9,242 bases of DNA from a candidate division WOR-3 bacterium (lineage in GTDB: Bacteria; Hydrothermota; Tepidihabitantia; Tepidihabitantales; CAIPLT01), in assembly GCA_965649215.1 (NCBI GenBank), contig CBFGJZ010000037.1, positions 1 through 9,242 on the forward strand, read 5' to 3'. The notes beneath the pieces were generated by a model. It was not told where the DNA came from. It saw nothing but the letters and a program-made list of their open reading frames with translations, and did not search any database. This document shows, piece by piece, positions 1 to 9,242 of this stretch. Numbering within the stretch: the first letter of the stretch is position 1; each line of letters opens with the position of its first letter. The position numbers and the translations under genes were made by a program.

Positions 1-114
1 CCAATATTCAGCGGTATTGCCACCGCCGAACTGAATTGTTTGTCCATACAGCGCCCAACTCCCGAAAACAATAAGTAAACTAAAGACAAAGAATAATTTA
101 TTTTTTACTGTCAT
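1..114 (-). CDS. 5' end of an exported protein, truncated by the window edge; possibly an outer-membrane protein
   Basis: Not in the ORF track. ATG at 112-114 overlaps the end of the upstream TlpA-like gene. The frame stays open to base 1 and reads MTVKNKLFFVFSLLIVFGSWALYGQTIQFGGGNTAEYW, with a basic N-terminus, hydrophobic core and likely cleavage before QT. Confidence 0.7.
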   Translation of the reverse strand, partial: MTVKNKLFFVFSLLIVFGSWALYGQTIQFGGGNTAEYW

Positions 115-625
115 CGCATTTTTTAGTTAATTCTCTAATCTTTTCCATAACTTTTTTCTCATCACCTGGCTTATAACCCTGATGGGTAAATATAATCTTC
201 TTGTTCTGGTCAACAATGAAAAAAGTGGGCATTACCTGCACATTATATGATTTACGCAGCTTATTTTCAGGATCTAAAACAATCTGATATTGCCATTTAT
301 GGCCTGCGGCAAAAGATTTAACTTCATCTTTGGACTTTGCTTTATCTTGGCTGATCGCTAAAAAACTAATACCCAATGAATCTATCTCTGGATAGTAAGG
401 TTTTAAGGCATCAAGTTCTTTAATACACATCTTACACCATAATGCCCAAAAACTCATTATCACGGGGCCCTTTTTGATGAGTGAATCAAGCACAACTAAC
501 TTACCATTAATATCATAAAGACTAAAACTGCTTGCATCTTTAAGAGTTATGGTCTTATCTTCTGCGTGCAGTCCTGCACTGATTAATAGTAATATTGATA
601 TTAAAGTTATAATTATCTTTTTCAT
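98..625 (-). CDS. TlpA/ResA-family thiol-disulfide oxidoreductase (redoxin), exported
   Basis: Motifs FSLYDING, SFWALWCKMCIKE (WCxxC), cis-Pro loop VMPTFFIVD and HQGY. Signal peptide MKKIIITLISILLLISAGLHA. ATG at 625, preceded by GGAG, is preferred over the track's start at 637. Confidence 0.9.
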   Translation of the reverse strand: MKKIIITLISILLLISAGLHAEDKTITLKDASSFSLYDINGKLVVLDSLIKKGPVIMSFWALWCKMCIKELDALKPYYPEIDSLGISFLAISQDKAKSKDEVKSFAAGHKWQYQIVLDPENKLRKSYNVQVMPTFFIVDQNKKIIFTHQGYKPGDEKKVMEKIRELTKKCDDSKK

Positions 626-626
626 A

Positions 627-1337
627 TCACTCCACAAACTTGGTTTTTATTGCTTGTAATATTTTTTTACTTTGTCGATCTTGCAGAAAAACAACTCCTC
701 GCATTTTAGGCGGGGCAATGTTGTGATTAAAATTAATAATTGTATCTAAACTATCTGGATAACTAACATTAATGGGTATCGTCGTGAGTTGTCTTACGAC
801 AAAATTAAAAGTACCCCCGAGATCACCTCGGATGCTATCCTCGCATATCGCAATAAAGGCGTAAACTGAATCGTGCCGAATGGTATCCGCAGCACCTATC
901 TTCAGGTGTAATTGACCGCTATTAACCGTCACACTACCCGTTAATTCTAAATTGTAACTTGGCACAATTGATTTGGCAACAATATAGTGCTGATTAAAAA
1001 CTGTATCATAAGCATTGGGATTATTCTCAAAAACAACATCTGTCCCATCAAAAACTACGGTTGGATAAGCTAAAATATTATAATAATTCATTCGTTCTTG
1101 AATCTGGGGTAGTTCAGGTTGTACAGAATGATTATAAGAGACAATCACTATTGAATCTCCATAATTAGTATGCAATTGAACAAGCGACTGCTCCGCAGCC
1201 GCACAAAAAGGTCAACCATCCTCAGTAAAAAACTCAACTAAAACAACGCGATTAGTTGGTGTCGGCAAGATGCGCGGTGCTTCCGAACAAAAAACAAAAA
1301 ACAGCGGTAATAACAATAAAAATCTCTCTATCTTCAT
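627..1337 (-). CDS. Omp28-like thioredoxin-fold selenoprotein, predicted lipoprotein, UxxC (U42-P-F-C), 236 aa
   Basis: The track ORF 627..1175 extends in frame through TGA at 1212-1214 to ATG 1337: MKIERFLLLLPLFFVFCSEAPRILPTPTNRVVLVEFFTEDG-U-PFCAAAEQSLVQLHTNYG. U occupies the first Cys position of a thioredoxin CxxC after the RVVLVEFFT strand. Later motifs YPTVVFDG and ICEDSI...FVVR. A SECIS-like hairpin follows the UGA. Confidence 0.88.
1184..1202 (-). promoter_or_regulatory. SECIS-like hairpin for UGA 1212-1214
   Basis: GCGGCUGC-GGA-GCAGUCGC: 8-bp stem (one G-U) with a G-containing loop, starting 9 nt after the UGA; GC-rich in an AT-rich gene. Confidence 0.75.
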
Positions 1338-1376: not shown

Positions 1377-2027
1377 TTACTTAACTTTAAGTTCGATGTC
1401 GTCAGCAAGGACCCTTGCTTCACATGAAGCACCTCAGCATCCATTGGTTGTATCCATAACAACAATTTGAAGCTTTTTTATATCCGAAACAGTAATTCCG
1501 GATAAGTGACTCAATTCTTCGCTAATCTTAAAGCTGTAATTGTACCAGCTGTCCATATGTGGTACATTTATTAAATGTAGCGTGCTAGTATTTTGCCAAG
1601 GGCAATGCGCTGTTTTAGAGACGATACGGGTTTCACCTAATAATTGGTAGCTGTCATTTAAATATCTTAAACAAATTGCCGCGGCTGCCCAATAAGAAGC
1701 ATTGGGGTTATATTCAATTGCTCGTAAATTTGCTTTCGCAGAAAACTGAAGATCACTTGTTGGAAAATCTATGGTCTGGTACAATTTAATGTGTCCGGCA
1801 TTGATCTTTTCTATAACTAACTCAAAATCATTATCTCCATCTAAGTTTTGATAGCGAGCAATCTCGTCTGAATAATTTAATCCGGAAGTATTCCTTTGCC
1901 ACCCGCTATTTAAGTCTTGCTCAAAATCACCATTAACAATCACTTTATTTATTATTGGCGATGAAGAATTACGATGGCAAGCACTAACAATAATAAAAAT
2001 TACTAATAGAAAAAAAGTTTTACGCAA
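1377..2027 (-). CDS. Lipoprotein with CBM4/9-like jelly-roll domain, selenoprotein with C-U198-GAS-C motif, 216 aa
   Basis: TTG start and lipoprotein signal MRKTFFLLVIFIIVSA-C. NGDFEQ...W opens the domain. The track stop TGA (1434-1436) is followed in frame by GASCEARVLADDIELKVK-TAA(1377), which matches the post-UGA sequence of the paralog (SGHCMARVLADDVAL). A SECIS-like hairpin is present. Confidence 0.87.
1404..1419 (-). promoter_or_regulatory. SECIS-like hairpin for UGA 1434-1436
   Basis: AGCAAG-GGUC-CUUGCU, starting 14 nt after the UGA, with possible lower pairing AUGU/ACAU. Spacing and loop are identical to the paralog's hairpin, with compensatory stem changes. Confidence 0.85.
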
Positions 2028-2036
2028 TTACCTTAA

Positions 2037-3950
2037 TTATTCCACTAATACTACTCGATAGCTAACTTTCTTGTGGTTATCAAGTACTAAATCAATGAAA
2101 TACACACCTGAATTTAGTTTCTGATTGTAGTCGTCTTTGCCATCCCACACTACAATATTTTCTTGATTATTTTTAGTATTTATAGTTTTAACACAATTAC
2201 CTAGTGTATTATAAATCCGCACTTTAATCTCTCGATGATTATCTGCTGAATATTGAAAATAAACCTGCTTACCAATTTTGATTGGATTAGGATAAATTCT
2301 AAATTGAGTTGAACTAATTTGGGTTTGGGGTGTTTCTTGAATGCCTGACAAGGTTATACCAAAAAATTTCATTATAGAATCAAGCAATATCTGTTTTGTC
2401 GAAGGTGCCGTACCATCTACCAAACTACCAAACTCAAACGAAACACCGATTGTCCGATAATTACCTGCATTATAAGCAACGCCACAATTATAACTATTAT
2501 TGCCGTCTTGGAATATCACATAACCAGTTGTCGCATTAATCCGATCCATATAGTTATTTTCTCCTGAATAATTGAAGTCCATTCCTGCAGTAAAAGTGTT
2601 ACTTACACCGATAACCGGTCCCATATCGCCGCTGCCATCGCTTACCCCAACTAAACCAAACATCGTATTAAAATTATGTCCGCCCACTTGTGGGTCATAA
2701 TACCAGACTTCGCCTCCTTCCATGTAAACTCGACCACCGCTGTTAAGATAATTAATTATCGCAGTTGCCTCAGCACCATTGGCAGCAATCCGATAATTAT
2801 TCGGGTAGACACCACAACAAACAAAGATCGACCGATAAATATCTAAGGTCGGTTCCGCAAGTAAATTAGTTGTAATCGCCCCAGTATAGCCATTAAAAGT
2901 TAAAAGATTGTGAATCGTTTGACCTGATGAAGGTGTGATATCTGGGTTCCAAACCAAATAATGATAAGAACCAACCACCAACGTGAAATTAAAGGTATCA
3001 GAAAAACTCCCTTCACTTGCAATTAATCTAAATACCGCATTGTGTCCCTGGGGACAAGAAGTGGAAACTGTAATTTGATAAGGATCCGCTGTATTCTCTT
3101 TAATGCTATCAATTAAAATACTTCCAAAATAGCCGCTATTATCGTTGATCGTTATATAGGGACTGCTACTCTGAAGGGTGGTGTTTAAATTGTTAAAATT
3201 AGCGCCACCAATATTGCGGAGAAGCGCGGTTAGATTAACGGTTTCACCTGGATCTAAACGCCCATTATTATTGCCACTTCCATCATAAACATTAGCTTTA
3301 ATAAAGCTCAAGTAATGATTGGTGCCATTATAATTTAAGGCCACATCATCGGCGAGGACCCTCGCCATACAATGACCACTTCAGCACCCATTGGTTGTAT
3401 CTAATAGAGCAATTTGAACTTTTCTAATTTGGGTTGGATTTACTCCTGGTAAATTAGCAAGTTCGTTATTTAAGTTAAAACTATAATTATACCAGTTATT
3501 CGGGTCCGTAACATTAATTAGATGAATCGTACTGGTACTTGTCCAAGGACTATGCGGGGTTTTGTAAGCAATACGGGTTTCGCCAAGTTGATTACCGTTT
3601 GCGTCCAGATATCTTAAACAAATCGCTGCGGCTGCCCAATAAGTTGCAGTTGGAGTATATTCAAGGGCATACAATTTTGCAGTAACCGAAAAATCCAAGT
3701 CAGTTGTGGGAATATTCACCGTTTGATATAATTTTGCATATATTTCATCATATTTTTTAACTCTTACCTCATAATCAGGATCAAGATCAAAATAAGTTTG
3801 ACGATCAATCGTATCTGAAGTATTCTGAAGTCCAAAAGCACTTGACCAACCAATATTCAAGGGTTGTTCAAAATCGCCATTTGTTAACAAACGTCCACCC
3901 AGACCAATACTTATTATTGATAAGAACAAGATCAAAAACTTTACCCTCAT
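2037..3950 (-). CDS. Secreted multidomain selenoprotein, 637 aa: CBM-like domain with C-U190-SGH-C, Ig-like domain, alpha/beta domain and C-terminal T9SS/FlgD-Ig-like sorting domain
   Basis: Track ORFs 3381..3965 and 2037..3368 are in one frame, separated only by TGA-AGT-GGT-CAT-TGT. ATG 3950 has AAGGAG 6 nt upstream and a signal peptide MRVKFLILFLSIISIGLG. Internal GNNNGRLDPGETVNL and YLNSGGRVYMEGGE segments. The C-terminus has IYPNP...IYNTLG...WDGKD...SGVYF. Confidence 0.87.
3339..3377 (-). promoter_or_regulatory. SECIS-like hairpin for UGA 3381-3383
   Basis: Upper stem GGCGAG-GGUC-CUCGCC (3366-3351) starts 14 nt after the UGA; possible lower stem GGUCAU/GUGGCC. Confidence 0.85.
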
Positions 3951-3967: not shown

Positions 3968-5017
3968 TTATTTCAGTATTATTTTTCCTATTTTAGAGCC
4001 GGCGTCGCATTCAAACCGATAAAAATAAGTACCAGCACTCACCGAGTTAGAAAAATCACATTTCACCGATTCGTTATTACTACGAGTAACGCCTGATATT
4101 GTTTTCACATTTCGACCACTAATATCAAAGATTGTAATTTTATATTTACTTCCTTGGTTTAAAGCAAAAGTAAACCATACCTGATTATGAGCAGGATTTG
4201 GTGAAACTGAAATTGGATAATTATTAATTTTGCTTTGGTTGGGTTCTTCAACACCTGTTAAATTTAAATCTAGAAGTTTTATTTTTGCACCTTGATTAAT
4301 TCGTTTCGTAATATTCACATTCATTGGATCTTGAATCATCGCAATTATTTCAACTCGGCTTTCAACCCATCCCGATGCAATTGAAAACGGATAACTGACG
4401 GTTATGGAATCCTGGTAGTTTAAAGTTACTGGTGTACCAATATGGTCAGGCAGATAGTCGCGTGCGACATGATTATGCCACTGGTCACCATTAGGTGTTT
4501 GTCGATAAATACTATCTTCTGTAATTACAAATAATACATTGTGCTGTAAAGTCGTTACAGTATCACTGATAAAACGTACATAGATTGTACCTGTTCGAGT
4601 TGCTTGATTATAATCTCCCCAAATTCGTGCATTAATACGTGATTCCACTGCTGCCCGCTGTAATATTAAATTTTCCCAATTCGAATAACTACTACCTGCG
4701 CTATAGTCGCCATCTATCCACAACCATGGGGTATAATAAGTTGTACCCGGCATGGGTAGATAAAAAAATCGGTTGCGTGCTTTTAATAAATACATTCCAT
4801 AACTTGCATAACTAGAATTGACATGCATTTCCACCGCTGCCGTTGCTCGGGGATAATTATATGAGATTTGTGCCAGTACACTACTGGCCGTAACACAAGA
4901 AGCTCAGCCCTCTGAATATGCTTCTTCGCAAACCACTACGCGATCATATGCTTGAATTGAAGCAATGAGCCCCAATCCAACAATTATTAATAGGGTACTA
5001 AATAATTTATTAATCAT
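3968..5017 (-). CDS. Omp28-like thioredoxin-fold selenoprotein, UxxC (U38-A-S-C), with signal peptide and C-terminal T9SS-like sorting domain, 349 aa
   Basis: The track ORF 3968..4834 extends in frame through TGA at 4904-4906 to ATG 5017: MINKLFSTLLIIVGLGLIASIQAYDRVVVCEEAYSEG-U-ASCVTASSVLAQISYNYPRATAAVEMH. Motifs YTPWLWIDG and VITEDSI...HNHVARD. The C-terminus has VSPNP...IFDISGR...AGTYF...KI. GGGGG lies just upstream of the ATG. Confidence 0.88.
4868..4898 (-). promoter_or_regulatory. SECIS-like hairpin for UGA 4904-4906
   Basis: GCCAGUA-GUG-UACUGGC (4888-4872): perfect 7-bp stem with GU in the loop, starting 15 nt after the UGA; possible lower pairing UUGU/ACAA. Confidence 0.78.
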
Positions 5018-5134: not shown

Positions 5135-5228
5135 GGAGGCGGATGGGTGCTGGTGTGCCTGCTGGACTTCAAATCCAGGTGTTCTTCGAAAGGAGAACGG
5201 TAGGTTCGATTCCTACACGCCTCCGCCA
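5135..5228 (+). tRNA. selC: tRNA-Sec (anticodon UCA)
   Basis: 94 nt. Acceptor GGAGGCG(G)/(A)CGCCTCC-G-CCA; 6-bp D stem GGGTGC-TGGT-GTGCCT; anticodon arm CTGGA-CTTCAAA-TCCAG with TCA at 5169-5171; long variable arm GTTCTTC-GAAA-GGAGAAC; T arm GTAGG-TTCGATT-CCTAC. Adjacent to selB. Confidence 0.97.
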
Positions 5229-5231
5229 ATA

Positions 5232-7262
5232 TTAAATTTTATTTATAATTTTAAGCGAAAGCGTCCTCACATCTCCTTGTCGGACGGTAATCCCTTTAGA
5301 ATCAAAATAAATTAAAAGGGGTAGGACCGCTCGTCGACTGGCATTTAGTAAATCCCTAAATTGTGAAACTCTTATTTCTTTGTTGTGCTTTAAGAATTCA
5401 ATCAATTTTAACTCTGCTTCTTTAACATATTTGTGATGCAAAACTAAGCCCTCGCCAATATTAATTAAGATTTTATTGTCAAGCAAATACTGATAAGCTT
5501 TTTTAATATCATTCTCTTTGCCAATTATTTTCGATTTCACATCCTTAAAATCAAGCGGTTGAAACTTTTGTGCTAATATCAATTTTTCAATTCTTTCAAC
5601 ATAGTCGGCAATAGTTTTCTCTAAAGCCACCTTAAATTCACTAAGATATATTTTTTTATCTGCTGAAATTTTAATTACTCCNNNNNNNNNNNNNNNNNNN
5701 NNNNNNNNNNNNNNNNNNNNNNNNNNNNNNNNNNNNNNNNNNNNNNNNNNNNNNNNNNNNNNNNNNNNNNNNNNNNNNNNATCTTGTTGAAGTTCTTCAA
5801 TTGCCCAGTCAAAAAGTATTTTATCTAAAGCAGGGCTTGCCTTCTTTAATAATTCTAAAGCTGAAATACCAATACTACTCGGATTGTTTTTATGATAATC
5901 TTTTAGCTCTTCAATAATTTTTTGCTTTAATCTTTCTCTATTCTCAGTGTGATAGTATAGTTCTTTTTTTTCATCTAAACACAATACCTTACGCTGAGCA
6001 ATTAACTGTCCCAATAAATCTTTCACTTCATGCATCGGCAGATTAATATCTTTAGCAATTTCAATTGGTTTTTTAGCCAAGTCAAAATTTGTTCTTAAGT
6101 CTTCTTCAACCAAAACTATTGGTTCAGCCGTTTCGGTACGTGCTAAATGGCCTAATAATTCCTCATTATAGCCTTTGATTTTTATAGCTTTTGGTTCTAG
6201 AATAATGCCACCCCCTATGGTTGTTTGAGGCGAATAAGTTCTTATCACAAACCGGTCGTTGATGCCGCAAACCACAGATTCTTCTAAGCGGAATTGGACA
6301 ATCGCTTTATCCCCCGGATTTAATAATTTCTTATCCAGAAGCACAACTCGACCTAACACTTCTTTAGTACCGATATGAATTCGCAATCGTTCAAAGTTTC
6401 TTAGTGGCTTATCAATTCTACTTAACAGGTATAAGGAAGCATTTACAAACATGGATGGTTCATAAAAACCACCTTGCGCTAAAACATCACCTCTTTCAAT
6501 CTCGTCTTTTTCAACGCCCACTAAATTAATTGCCGCCCGAAATCCTGTACCGACTTCGTCTACTTGTTTGTTGTGTACTTCAATCCCTCGTACCTTAACT
6601 ATCTTCTTTTGAGGTAAAAGTTCCAATTCTGCTCCGACTTTGGTTTTCCCTGATAAAATAGTACCAGCCACCACGGTTCCAAACCCCTTAATGGTAAAAC
6701 AACGGTCTATCGGCATTCTAAAAATTCCTCGGTCAATTTTAGTTTCGGTCTCACCAATCAATTTATCTAATATGCGCTTTAGCTCATCAATACCTTCTAA
6801 AGTAACATTTGAAACCGAAACAATTGGCGCACTTTCCAGAAAAGAATTGCGCATTAACTCTTTAACATCATTCATAACAATCTTCAATCGTTCCTCTTTT
6901 ACTAAATCTTTCTTAGTAATCACTACGATTCCTTTTTTAATCGCCAATAGTTTTAAAATTTCTAAATGCTCATAGGTTTGGGGCATAATACCATCATCAG
7001 CCGCAATCACAAATATAACAATATCTACAGTCGAAGCACCGGCTACCATATGTCGAACAAATTTCTCGTGTCCAGGCACATCAATAATCGTAGCATTATC
7101 CCCATAAAAGACGAAACCTAAATCAGTGGTCATACCTCGTTCTTTTTCTTCTTTTAATCGGTCTGGATCCACACCCGTCAAAGCTTTAACTAAAGCGCTT
7201 TTACCATGGTCAATATGACCAGCCGTCCCAATAACAATGTGTCGTTTTATCGTATCAGTCAT
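5232..7262 (-). CDS. selB: Selenocysteine-specific translation elongation factor SelB (contains an assembly gap)
   Basis: [64 protein letters not shown], and a C-terminal winged-helix FRDLLNASR...PLLIYFD...RQGDVR. Located next to selA and selC. Confidence 0.97.
5682..5780. other. Assembly gap (99 N)
   Basis: Run of N inside selB. Confidence 0.99.
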
Positions 7263-7268
7263 ATTTTA

Positions 7269-8668
7269 CTACATTGTTTCTCGAAATGCTTGTAATATAA
7301 TCTCACCTTCGCCAGGAAGAATGGTACGAAAATCTAACATTAATGCGTTCGCTTGAACTCTACCAAAAATAGGTATTTTATATTGTCTCAATTTTCTTGC
7401 TAATTCTTGGCTGGGCATAATTTTTGGTTGGATCGAGACAACATAACTATCAAGTTCTTTGGTTGATAACGAACCGCCGCCAATTTCGGCNNNNNNNNNN
7501 NNNNNNNNNNNNNNNNNNNNNNNNNNNNNNNNNNNNNNNNNNNNNNNNNNNNNNNNNNNNNNNNNNNNNNNNNNNNNNNNNNNNNNGTCTGCAAGGTTGC
7601 TTCTAATACCGCATTTGTTAATTTATCACAACGCAAAGCCCGAGTGAGCGGGTGTTTCTTAATCTTTTCAATATATTCTTTTTTGCCAACAATAATTCCT
7701 GCTTGGGGTCCACCGATTAATTTATCGCCACTAAAACAGACAACATCAGCGCCTGTTTCGATACTTTCTCTAACCATTGGTTCTTTGGGTAAGCCGTATT
7801 TACTAAAATCAATCAACGCGCCACTTCCTAAGTCATCGACCACAGGAATATGATACTTTTTACCTAATGCGACTAGTTCAGACAATGGTACTTCTTTAGT
7901 AAAACCAGTTATTTGATAATTAGATTGGTGGATCCGAATAATTGCACCAGTTTCTGGCTCTAAACCTAATTCACTGTTGGATTTTTGATTAATTTTTCTT
8001 TCTCTCTTTTTGCCTTTATTTTTAATGTGTATCGCTTGTTCATAATCTTTAAGATGGGTCCGATTTGTTGTCCCAACTTCTTTCATAATACAACCTGATT
8101 GTGCCATAATTTCAGGAATCCGAAACGAACCGCCGATTTCAATCAACTGGCCACGAGAAACAATTACTTCTTTGCCTTGAGCTAATGCTCGCAAAACTAA
8201 TAAGGTTGCGCCAGCATTATTGTTAACTACAATACCTGCTTCGGCACCTGTTAAAATTTGGAGTAGTTTACTAATCTTTTTATAGCGGTCATCTCTTTTG
8301 CCTTCATCGTCAATTTGTAATCTTGAATATGCTTTAGCGACATCTGCCAATATCTCCGGGATACCACTGACAAAAGGTGCTCGACCAAGGCCGGTATGAA
8401 GCACAATGCCAAGGGCATTTATCGCATACTTAAAATACCTTTGAGTTAGATAATTCAATTCGCCAACTATCATCTGTCTTAAATTATCTGTATTTAACGA
8501 TTCGCCTTTAAGCAGTTTTTGTCTAAACTCATCAACCTTATCTCTAATAATCTTAACCAAGTATCTATGCTCTAATCTATCTTCAAACTCTTTAATTTCC
8601 TGCCAATTAAGAATTTTATCAACCGACGGAATATCTTTAAGTAATGATTTTTTATTAATCGTTGCCAT
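7269..8668 (-). CDS. selA: L-seryl-tRNA(Sec) selenium transferase SelA (the frame change falls inside an assembly gap)
   Basis: IPSVD, INALGIVLHTGLGRA, VVNNNAGA, VSRGQLIEIGGSFRIPEIM, EVGTTNRT, DLGSG and the PLP-lysine motif FSGDKLIGGPQAG. After the gap the correct frame is AEIGGGSLSTKEL...PIFGRVQANALMLDFRTILPGE...RETM-TAG(7269), 6 nt before the selB ATG. The track's end at 7400 is in the wrong frame. ATG 8668 is preferred as start. Confidence 0.96.
7491..7586. other. Assembly gap (96 N)
   Basis: Run of N inside selA. Confidence 0.99.
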
Positions 8669-8673
8669 AAACA

Positions 8674-8701
8674 ATTATAGATTAGAGTATTAAGATGTCA
8701 A
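8674..8701 (-). promoter_or_regulatory. sigma-70-type promoter of selAB, probably giving a leaderless mRNA
   Basis: TTGACA (8701-8696), 16 nt, TATAAT (8679-8674), then 5 nt to ATG 8668; no Shine-Dalgarno visible. Confidence 0.72.
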
Positions 8702-8822: not shown

Positions 8823-9242
8823 TTACGCTTCAATTCCTAAATCTTTCAGTTTTTTATATAATTGCACACGTTGAATATTTAATGCTTTAGCGGTTTTAGT
8901 TTTATTATAGTTGTTTTCCGCCAATACTTTTAAGATAAATGCTTTTTGAAATTCATTGGTTGCTTGTTTGAGTGTCTGATTGGTATTAACTTGCGAGTTG
9001 CTAGTCTGTTCGATTAATGGTATTAAATCTTTTGATTTGATTTCTTTTTCTTTAATTAAAATTGAAGCCCGCTCCATTAAGTTTTCTAATTGTCGGACAT
9101 TACCAGGCCATGATTGATTCATCAAAAATTCGATCGCACTTTGTGAAAGTCGCTTTTTCATAACACCGTTTTCTTCGCAGTATTTCTCTAAAAAATAATC
9201 AGCTAAAGCACCTATCTCTTCTTTGCGCTCTCTTAATGGTGG
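8823..9242 (-). CDS. Sigma-54-dependent transcriptional activator (NtrC/AtoC-like), C-terminal part with Fis-type HTH; 5' end outside the window
   Basis: The frame is open to the window edge: PPLRERKEEIGALADYFLEKYC..., WPGNVRQLENLMER, and HTH NKTKTAKALNIQRVQLYKKLK. Confidence 0.93.
   Translation of the reverse strand, partial: PPLRERKEEIGALADYFLEKYCEENGVMKKRLSQSAIEFLMNQSWPGNVRQLENLMERASILIKEKEIKSKDLIPLIEQTSNSQVNTNQTLKQATNEFQKAFILKVLAENNYNKTKTAKALNIQRVQLYKKLKDLGIEA

Follow-up and report, generated by a model that had tools for sequence, protein, structure and literature searches.

We analyzed a stretch of 9,242 nucleotides (the window; contig CBFGJZ010000037.1, assembly GCA_965649215.1) from a candidate division WOR-3 bacterium, in which two adjacent paralogous genes on the minus strand, here named genes B and C, each contain one in-frame TGA codon. 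Read through as selenocysteine (Sec, U), gene B (2037..3950, running 3950-2037) encodes 637 residues and gene C (1377..2027, running 2027-1377) encodes 216 residues. The TGA of gene B lies at 3381..3383 (read 3383-3381; U190 in C189-U190-S-G-H-C194) and that of gene C at 1434..1436 (read 1436-1434; U198 in C197-U198-G-A-S-C202). Each is followed on the same strand by a hairpin of the selenocysteine insertion sequence (SECIS) type with a 6-bp stem and a GGUC loop, at 3351..3366 in gene B and 1404..1419 in gene C. An earlier examination of these letters without database searches (the sequence-only reading) had placed two paralogs at 1377..3950 with an in-frame UGA after DTTNGC and hairpins at identical spacing; the motifs were exact, the coordinates were confirmed, and the loop begins 20 nt past the UGA in both genes.

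Gene B is ordered as a signal peptide (judged by eye), the Sec-containing beta-sandwich (approximately residues 19-207; 3330..3896), an immunoglobulin (Ig)-like domain of about 120 aa followed by a class I glutamine amidotransferase (GATase)-like or glycoside hydrolase family 42 (GH42)-trimerisation-like domain (together 2352..3329), and a type IX secretion system (T9SS) type A sorting/FlgD-Ig tail (2040..2297). The galactose-binding-like fold of its beta-sandwich was taken from the model of gene C. The tail matched TIGR04183 with 31.5 bits against a cut-off of 23, and PF13860 and PF18962 above cut-off; SprA and PorV were both detected above cut-off in the source genome. Gene B is thus predicted, from its sorting tail and SprA/PorV, to be a T9SS cargo displayed on the cell surface. 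The model of its GATase-like domain aligned with the GH42 domain of 5xb7 (Z 17.2, root-mean-square deviation (rmsd) 3.2, 185 residues aligned), and the domain carries an E-G-G elbow without Cys and is presumably catalytically inactive; the middle of gene B had no match among sequences of solved structures. Gene C consists of a lipobox (V-S-A-C17, judged by eye) followed by the Sec beta-sandwich alone, without a T9SS tail, and is a probable lipoprotein. These signals agree with the export proposed earlier for both products. Matches of gene C to ribosomal protein L2 were below cut-off and were set aside.

A search with gene C found the domain at 258 places in 107 of 272 genomes of the phylum, with up to nine copies per genome. 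Among the best 150 of the 258 places, 148 showed an in-frame TGA, two had no stop, and none had TAA or TAG. From most of these 150 places, 143 distinct copies were fetched and read closely, one partial match being dropped. TGA occupied the aligned site in 141 of them (140 by pattern and L143 by eye) and TAA or TAG in none; the exceptions were L031, with Cys at the U site, and L032, with neither TGA nor Cys. Past the TGA the frame stayed open, the nearest next stop lying at least 16 codons away in the copies read, and in five paralog-rich genomes the TGA was kept in 33 of 34 copies. A divergent copy on a metagenome contig of 69% GC had the identical TGA, hairpin and layout. Homologs with conserved UGA and hairpin, which the sequence-only reading had suggested looking for, occur within the phylum, whereas the CCxxxC homologs that it also named were not seen. 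Cys-for-Sec homologs were rare (L031, which is P0038, and P0096) and had other loops; Cys replaced U in 1/143 copies. In one further copy (L050:4695-5255, minus strand), a second in-frame TGA was observed at the position of the conserved Trp16, to be explained by degeneration of the copy, by misassembly or by read-through at a second site.

A library of 1.8 billion proteins contained 370 relatives. In 122 of the best 150, the protein ended just before U, no more than 10 residues from the match, with Cys as the final residue in 88; another 17 were continuous without U, and 11 were partial or other. SaoL was discovered likewise, as proteins all ending on an aligned Cys, according to the available text of 10.1101/2022.07.06.499078. 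Single-protein pattern scans of named genomes found no relatives.

SelA, SelB, SelD and tRNA-Sec are all present in the source genome (1.64 Mb, completeness 95%). With SelA counted at E < 1e-10, it was detected in 103 of the 107 domain carriers, the remaining four being fragmented assemblies of 170-300 contigs; conversely, the domain was found in 103 of 124 SelA genomes and in 4 of 148 others. Full-profile searches of five SelA-free genomes gave no match. In the source genome TGA behaves as an ordinary stop, terminating 144 of 859 long open reading frames (ORFs), where the next stop follows after a median of 5 codons, and the only tRNA with a TCA anticodon that was found is tRNA-Sec. General recoding is therefore disfavoured. 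A reading of the UGA as Trp, Gly or Cys, through an alternative code or suppression, has as its sole support that such recodings exist in other bacteria; it is set against these stop and tRNA counts, the match of the hairpin to the bacterial SECIS model and the tracking of SelA by the family, and we consider it extremely improbable.

The hairpin was examined in 48 aligned copies of equal spacing, two with other spacing being left out. In this alignment 99% of cells were paired and 36 double changes were counted, and none of 500 shuffles was as high in paired fraction, in double changes or in covariation score; the number of pairs with a double change was unremarkable (160/500 shuffles). Slid-window controls were 21-60% paired. 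Between genes B and C themselves, the hairpins differ by two G-C to A-U double changes. Of 140 copies, 137 had a GGUC loop and 3 a GGUU loop; the stem was complete, with six pairs, in 136. The bacterial SECIS consensus, as given in the available text of PMC13188914, comprises a 3-9 nt loop with G in the first two places, a 4-16 bp stem, a distance of 16-37 nt from the UGA and an energy of -7.5 or lower. The two hairpins correspond to it in their GGUC loop, 6 bp and 20 nt, and the best 45-nt windows reached -19.2 and -11.1 kcal/mol; the upper stem of gene C taken alone gave -6.0. Such a hairpin followed 10 of 62,015 TGA trinucleotides of the genome, with four spacings tested and the two real sites counted in.

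The residues encoded by the stem in the 140 copies were K-V-F (101), R-V-L (16), E-V-S (11), E-V-F (9), and R-V-F, Q-V-C and W-V-Y (1 each). They change jointly because the pairing must be kept. The similarity past the UGA that had been noticed between the paralogs (DTTNGC-U-SGHC-MARVLADDVAL in gene B and DTTNGC-U-GASC-EARVLADDIEL in gene C) must consequently be divided. Its A-x-V-x-A part is imposed by the RNA hairpin and is therefore not independent protein evidence. Three other features are independent of the hairpin: D-D-x-x-L past the stem, frames that stay open over long stretches, and homologs without Sec. The two Sec domains share 49% identity over 213 residues, spanning the TGA and beyond.

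We also considered the TGA as a true stop, gene B then being two genes with re-initiation at the ATG at 3368. Gene calling with table 11 indeed yields ORFs of 194 aa and 443 aa, and TGA is frequent as a stop in this genome. However, this ATG falls at a variable column and is rare among homologs, the downstream part would carry a sorting tail without a signal peptide, and the Sec-free homologs P0046, P0068 and L032 are continuous with the same layout. The absence of TAA and TAG at the site in 143 copies and the covarying hairpin also oppose a true stop, and we regard it as very improbable; even jointly, a true stop and other recoding have only a slight chance of being correct. Decoding of the UGA as Sec by SelB and tRNA-Sec via the in-frame hairpin, as proposed by the sequence-only reading, is strongly supported by the TGA in 141/143 copies, the hairpin covariation and SelA in 103/107 carriers.

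The read-through domain of gene C was modelled with high confidence (predicted local distance difference test score 96.2, predicted template modelling score 0.91) and was all-beta except for a short helix. In the model U171 lies in a loop ahead of the last strand (175-188), that is, a strand encoded past the UGA. Residues 1-189 of the model aligned with the tailspike domain 5w6h (Z 14.6, rmsd 2.6, 143 aligned), the carbohydrate-binding module (CBM) CBM16 2zew (Z 12.6, rmsd 3.1, 137 aligned), the hyaluronan-binding module 4d0q (Z 13.4), a porphyran CBM (Z 13.0) and CBM4 (Z 10.9). Because these modules were covered to their ends, the strand after the UGA corresponds to their last strand. In the galactose-binding-like fold the last strand occupies the middle of its sheet and contributes an Asp which, together with an N-terminal G-x-F-E loop, builds the structural calcium site of CBMs. 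In the family E9 was 98% and D179 99% conserved; N-G-x-F-E and the last-strand Asp are kept. The sequence-only reading had named NGDFE and a final DDxxL strand as the elements that bracket such folds. In the model the product takes the form of a galactose-binding-like beta-sandwich, and Sec occupies the loop that leads into the last strand; the earlier proposal of a CBM-like jelly roll that is complete only with the strand after the UGA is supported. At the sequence level the relationship is faint: PF02018 (CBM4/9) had no match to genes B and C at E <= 0.1 and only weak matches, below cut-off, in 6 of 52 family members (best E 4e-4), and the domain matched one solved-structure sequence weakly (5x7o, E 0.019). 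Thioredoxin and Omp28 models did not match genes B and C, and the fold is all-beta, not thioredoxin.

The cysteines around U were compared in 140 copies. Both C-1 (the residue before U) and C+4 were present in 17, C-1 alone in 90, C+4 alone in 1 and neither in 32, so that the C-U dipeptide occurs in 107/140. The copies with both cysteines are mostly close kin. C-U-x-x-x-C, which the sequence-only reading had taken as the motif of the family, is thus a clade trait; the mark of the family is U, usually as C-U, together with a distant C-P-W Cys and a His. The best-kept Cys is C113 in the C-P-W loop (120/141), accompanied by W115 (128/141) and H122 (136/141). The Sec-free relative P0046 retains C-A-x-x-x-C, suggesting that C-1 and C+4 may be bonded to each other in that clade, with U free or paired elsewhere. 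By strand order in the model, loops 49-50, 79-86, 112-122 and 168-174 appear to share one end of the sandwich, and many clade-specific cysteines are located in them. Co-occurrence of cysteines across the family named no partner of U. The domain is always N-terminal, and the remainder varies from a bare tail to 1669 residues. This constancy of the N-terminal domain argues that the Sec domain is the working unit.

The genes around B and C were then considered. Genes A, B, C and D follow one another on the minus strand, downstream of selA, selB and tRNA-Sec in minus-strand order; all four have a single internal in-frame TGA followed by a hairpin. Gene A (3968..5017, minus) encodes an Omp28-type thioredoxin-like selenoprotein with U38-A-S-C, a TGA at 4906-4904 followed by a hairpin, and a T9SS tail; it matched Omp28 at cut-off. 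Gene D (627..1337, minus) encodes a thioredoxin/Omp28-like probable lipoprotein selenoprotein with U42-P-F-C and a TGA at 1214-1212, then a hairpin; its terminator is an ordinary TGA besides the internal one. NF045500 gave 43 bits for gene A and 26 bits for gene D against a cut-off of 200; being far under it, they possibly form subfamilies of their own. Their orthologs in other genomes likewise contain the TGA. Next to gene D lies a TlpA/ResA-like thiol-disulfide oxidoreductase gene with C-K-M-C (98..637, minus), followed by the start of a DUF6029-like ORF (1..114, minus) that runs off the contig end and is similar to the beginnings of the DUF6029 proteins that occupy this position in L055 and L062; a search of the source genome with PF19494 (DUF6029), made without a positive control, did not find it. 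On the other side of gene A are tRNA-Sec (selC; 5135..5224, plus strand, anticodon TCA, RF01852 77.5 bits vs 47), selB (5232..7262, minus, profile match), selA (7320..8674, minus, its end approximate because the sequence is partly N) and, directly upstream of selA, the end of a sigma-54-type activator (8823-9242, minus; AAA lid and Fis helix-turn-helix). SelD is encoded elsewhere (G000:C3:101165-102073, plus) with C-A-G-U-A-S-K and its own internal TGA, and its hairpin failed the scan filter.

Similar neighbourhoods were observed in other members of the family. In 15 of the 29 best loci, an Omp28-type gene was no more than 1.5 kb away. Among nine larger regions, several of which were picked for a nearby selA, eight had an Omp28-type gene and five also a lipoprotein and TlpA. 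The gene order lipoprotein UxxC, TlpA, DUF6029 and NapH-like is repeated in L055 and L062, and DUF6029 and a NapH/MauN-like membrane 4Fe-4S protein also continue the operon in L055, L056 and L062, whereas the contig end intervenes here. In L056, a 240-aa secreted protein (L056:7715-8434, minus) with a T9SS tail and W-C-I-G-G-S-U-S-P adjoins selA and an Omp28 lipoprotein, and is perhaps a third unlisted selenoprotein.

These neighbours bear on the function. In the reading that we prefer, the product would be shown on stalks through the T9SS tail or anchored as a lipoprotein, as its sorting signals suggest, and Sec would sit at the tip of a binding head, its selenol being redox-active. The target of the selenol would be a disulfide, polysulfide or peroxide of a bound substrate outside the cell; after the attack a selenenyl-sulfide would be closed with a neighbouring Cys, which by clade may be C-1, the C-P-W Cys or C+4. 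The head would be re-reduced by the co-encoded Omp28-type UxxC thioredoxins, themselves fed by TlpA and the NapH-like membrane 4Fe-4S protein. This reading is favoured because of the Omp28-type neighbours, the recurring UxxC/TlpA/DUF6029/NapH-like order, the frequent C-U, and the conserved C113 and H122. An exported redox head is our best guess, with about an even chance of being correct; its redox cycle, partners and substrate are what we infer.

Several observations weigh against it. No resolving Cys is invariant: both C-1 and C+4 are missing from 32/140 copies, and in gene B the C-P-W Cys is replaced by Ser. The proximity of U to C113, W115 and H122 is judged by strand order alone, and Cys parity across copies (75 even, 63 odd) names no partner of U. 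At the U site, most of the 17 full-length relatives without Sec carry a residue other than Cys, and the ancestral domain was therefore not a thiol enzyme. Linkage was weaker among 20 further loci, most of them in more distant members: an Omp28-type neighbour turned up in just 2. Finally, kin genomes are not independent, and their relatedness inflates the conservation and covariation counts; the double changes are nevertheless spread over several clades.

Alternatively, Sec, often as C-U and with the conserved His, could act as a soft ligand, either trapping a metal or metalloid (Hg, As, Cu, Ag) or holding a selenium store on the cell surface, while the thioredoxins would only maintain the site in reduced form. 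C-U marks SaoL, HgcA, SaoC and MbdU in Table 1 of PMC13188914, H122 is kept in 136/141 copies, and one metagenome copy (L156) stands beside an ArsR regulator and an MTH895/ArsE thioredoxin. However, C-1 is absent in 33/140 copies, 29 neighbouring proteins scanned included no metal transporter, and the ArsR neighbour occurs at one place only (two near-identical loci), so that we regard a metal ligand as unlikely, though worth keeping in view. The locus in question (L156:2733-4754, minus) holds a divergent member back-to-back with the ArsR regulator, a probable permease, the MTH895/ArsE thioredoxin and further thiol-redox genes.

We give a similarly low chance to a glycan-binding adhesin module, in which Sec, within the binding loop, would engage in a selenenyl-sulfide with a structural or switching role or act as a covalent catch, without turnover. 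Matching folds include CBM16, CBM4, CBM61 and modules that bind hyaluronan or porphyran; the domain always stands at the N-terminus, ahead of stalks that vary, and a genome may have as many as nine paralogs; and Sec-free relatives are accessory domains of large secreted proteins. Against this, PF02018 does not match the window proteins and is weak in the 6/52 members, and a structural bond could use Cys, yet Cys stands for U in 1/143 copies.

Rough scans of the source genome indicated six likely selenoproteins: SelD, the four genes A-D and a secreted repeat protein on another contig. All except SelD are exported by prediction. The hairpin scan missed SelD, so that the count is rough and the list may be incomplete; a dicodon scan for further selenoproteins did not recover known positives and was discarded. 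No molybdopterin oxidoreductase was found in this genome, and its NiFe hydrogenase matches had no internal stop. The secreted repeat protein (G000:C3:30512-31927, plus; propeller-like, with a T9SS tail and G-C-U) represents a second candidate selenoprotein family with relatives at L053:4513-5928 and L063-L074. Each of its 14 best matches in the phylum, itself counted, had one in-frame TGA, most copies read had a CGGGU-loop hairpin, and paralogs of about 900 aa lacked the TGA. Two long ORFs joined across an in-frame TGA (G000:C1:31413, plus; C19:3320, minus), with no Cys nearby and outside the hairpin-scan matches, are probably adjacent genes.

The family was compared with known systems. It shares the in-frame UGA, the consensus hairpin, SelA/SelB/SelD/tRNA-Sec and database entries cut at the UGA with bacterial SelB/SECIS selenoproteins, of which most families listed in PMC13188914 are thioredoxin-like or metal/Fe-S enzymes. 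C-U is shared with SaoL (NF040728), SaoC, HgcA, MbdU and KCU-star, which differ in fold, whereas here export is of T9SS type and C-1 is dispensable; NCBIfam models of C-U selenoproteins had no match in 52 members at E <= 0.01. Mammalian thioredoxin reductase ends in G-C-U-G, a vicinal Cys-Sec in a flexible loop. Gene C also reads G-C-U-G, by analogy only, since the fold is unrelated and in gene C the motif lies in an internal loop without a flavin. The galactose-binding-like modules (CBM16 2zew, CBM4 1gui, CBM61 2xom, 4d0q and 5w6h) share the beta-sandwich over the whole model, N-G-x-F-E and the last-strand Asp, but are 11-17% identical, and here extra loops carry Sec, Cys and His. The Omp28-related selenoprotein (NF045500, GOS_C) resembles the neighbours A and D (UxxC, Omp28 domain, sorting tail) rather than genes B and C, which, unlike NF045500 and HBP35, have no thioredoxin fold; Porphyromonas HBP35 is described in the available text of PMC2907840 and PMC3120885 as a T9SS cargo with a thioredoxin motif.

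Neither Pfam nor NCBIfam contained a model that reached cut-off for the domain, and no selenoprotein model of NCBIfam (June 2026) described it. Compared by name and motif, the 119 families in Table 1 of PMC13188914 include nothing named or described as galactose-binding- or CBM-like, in line with the sequence-only reading, which recognised no matching selenoprotein family. No description was found in the literature covered, in which Haft and Tolstoy 2025 is represented by the review table and the BSepDB family list (PMC13326102) lay outside the comparison. The exported selenoprotein family on a lectin-like fold is real and apparently undescribed.

For the catalogue compared, these results add a large selenoprotein family on a fold that was not found there, with 258 matches in 107 genomes of one phylum. 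Since most database entries are cut at the UGA, 'hypothetical proteins' of 190 aa and tail fragments are in reality single exported proteins. A hairpin whose pairing dictates amino acids provides a clean natural test set for SECIS rules, and the size of the domain, 190 residues, makes its function directly testable. More tentatively, the lineage may keep its Sec machinery mainly for a cell-surface selenoproteome, in which a selenium-based redox relay would start at the membrane 4Fe-4S protein, pass TlpA and the UxxC proteins of Omp28 type, and end at heads displayed by the T9SS, a lectin fold having become a selenoenzyme or covalent catch for extracellular sulfur substrates. The family is a sign of selenium chemistry on the cell surface in an anaerobic lineage without cultured members, and could be the reason why these genomes retain Sec.

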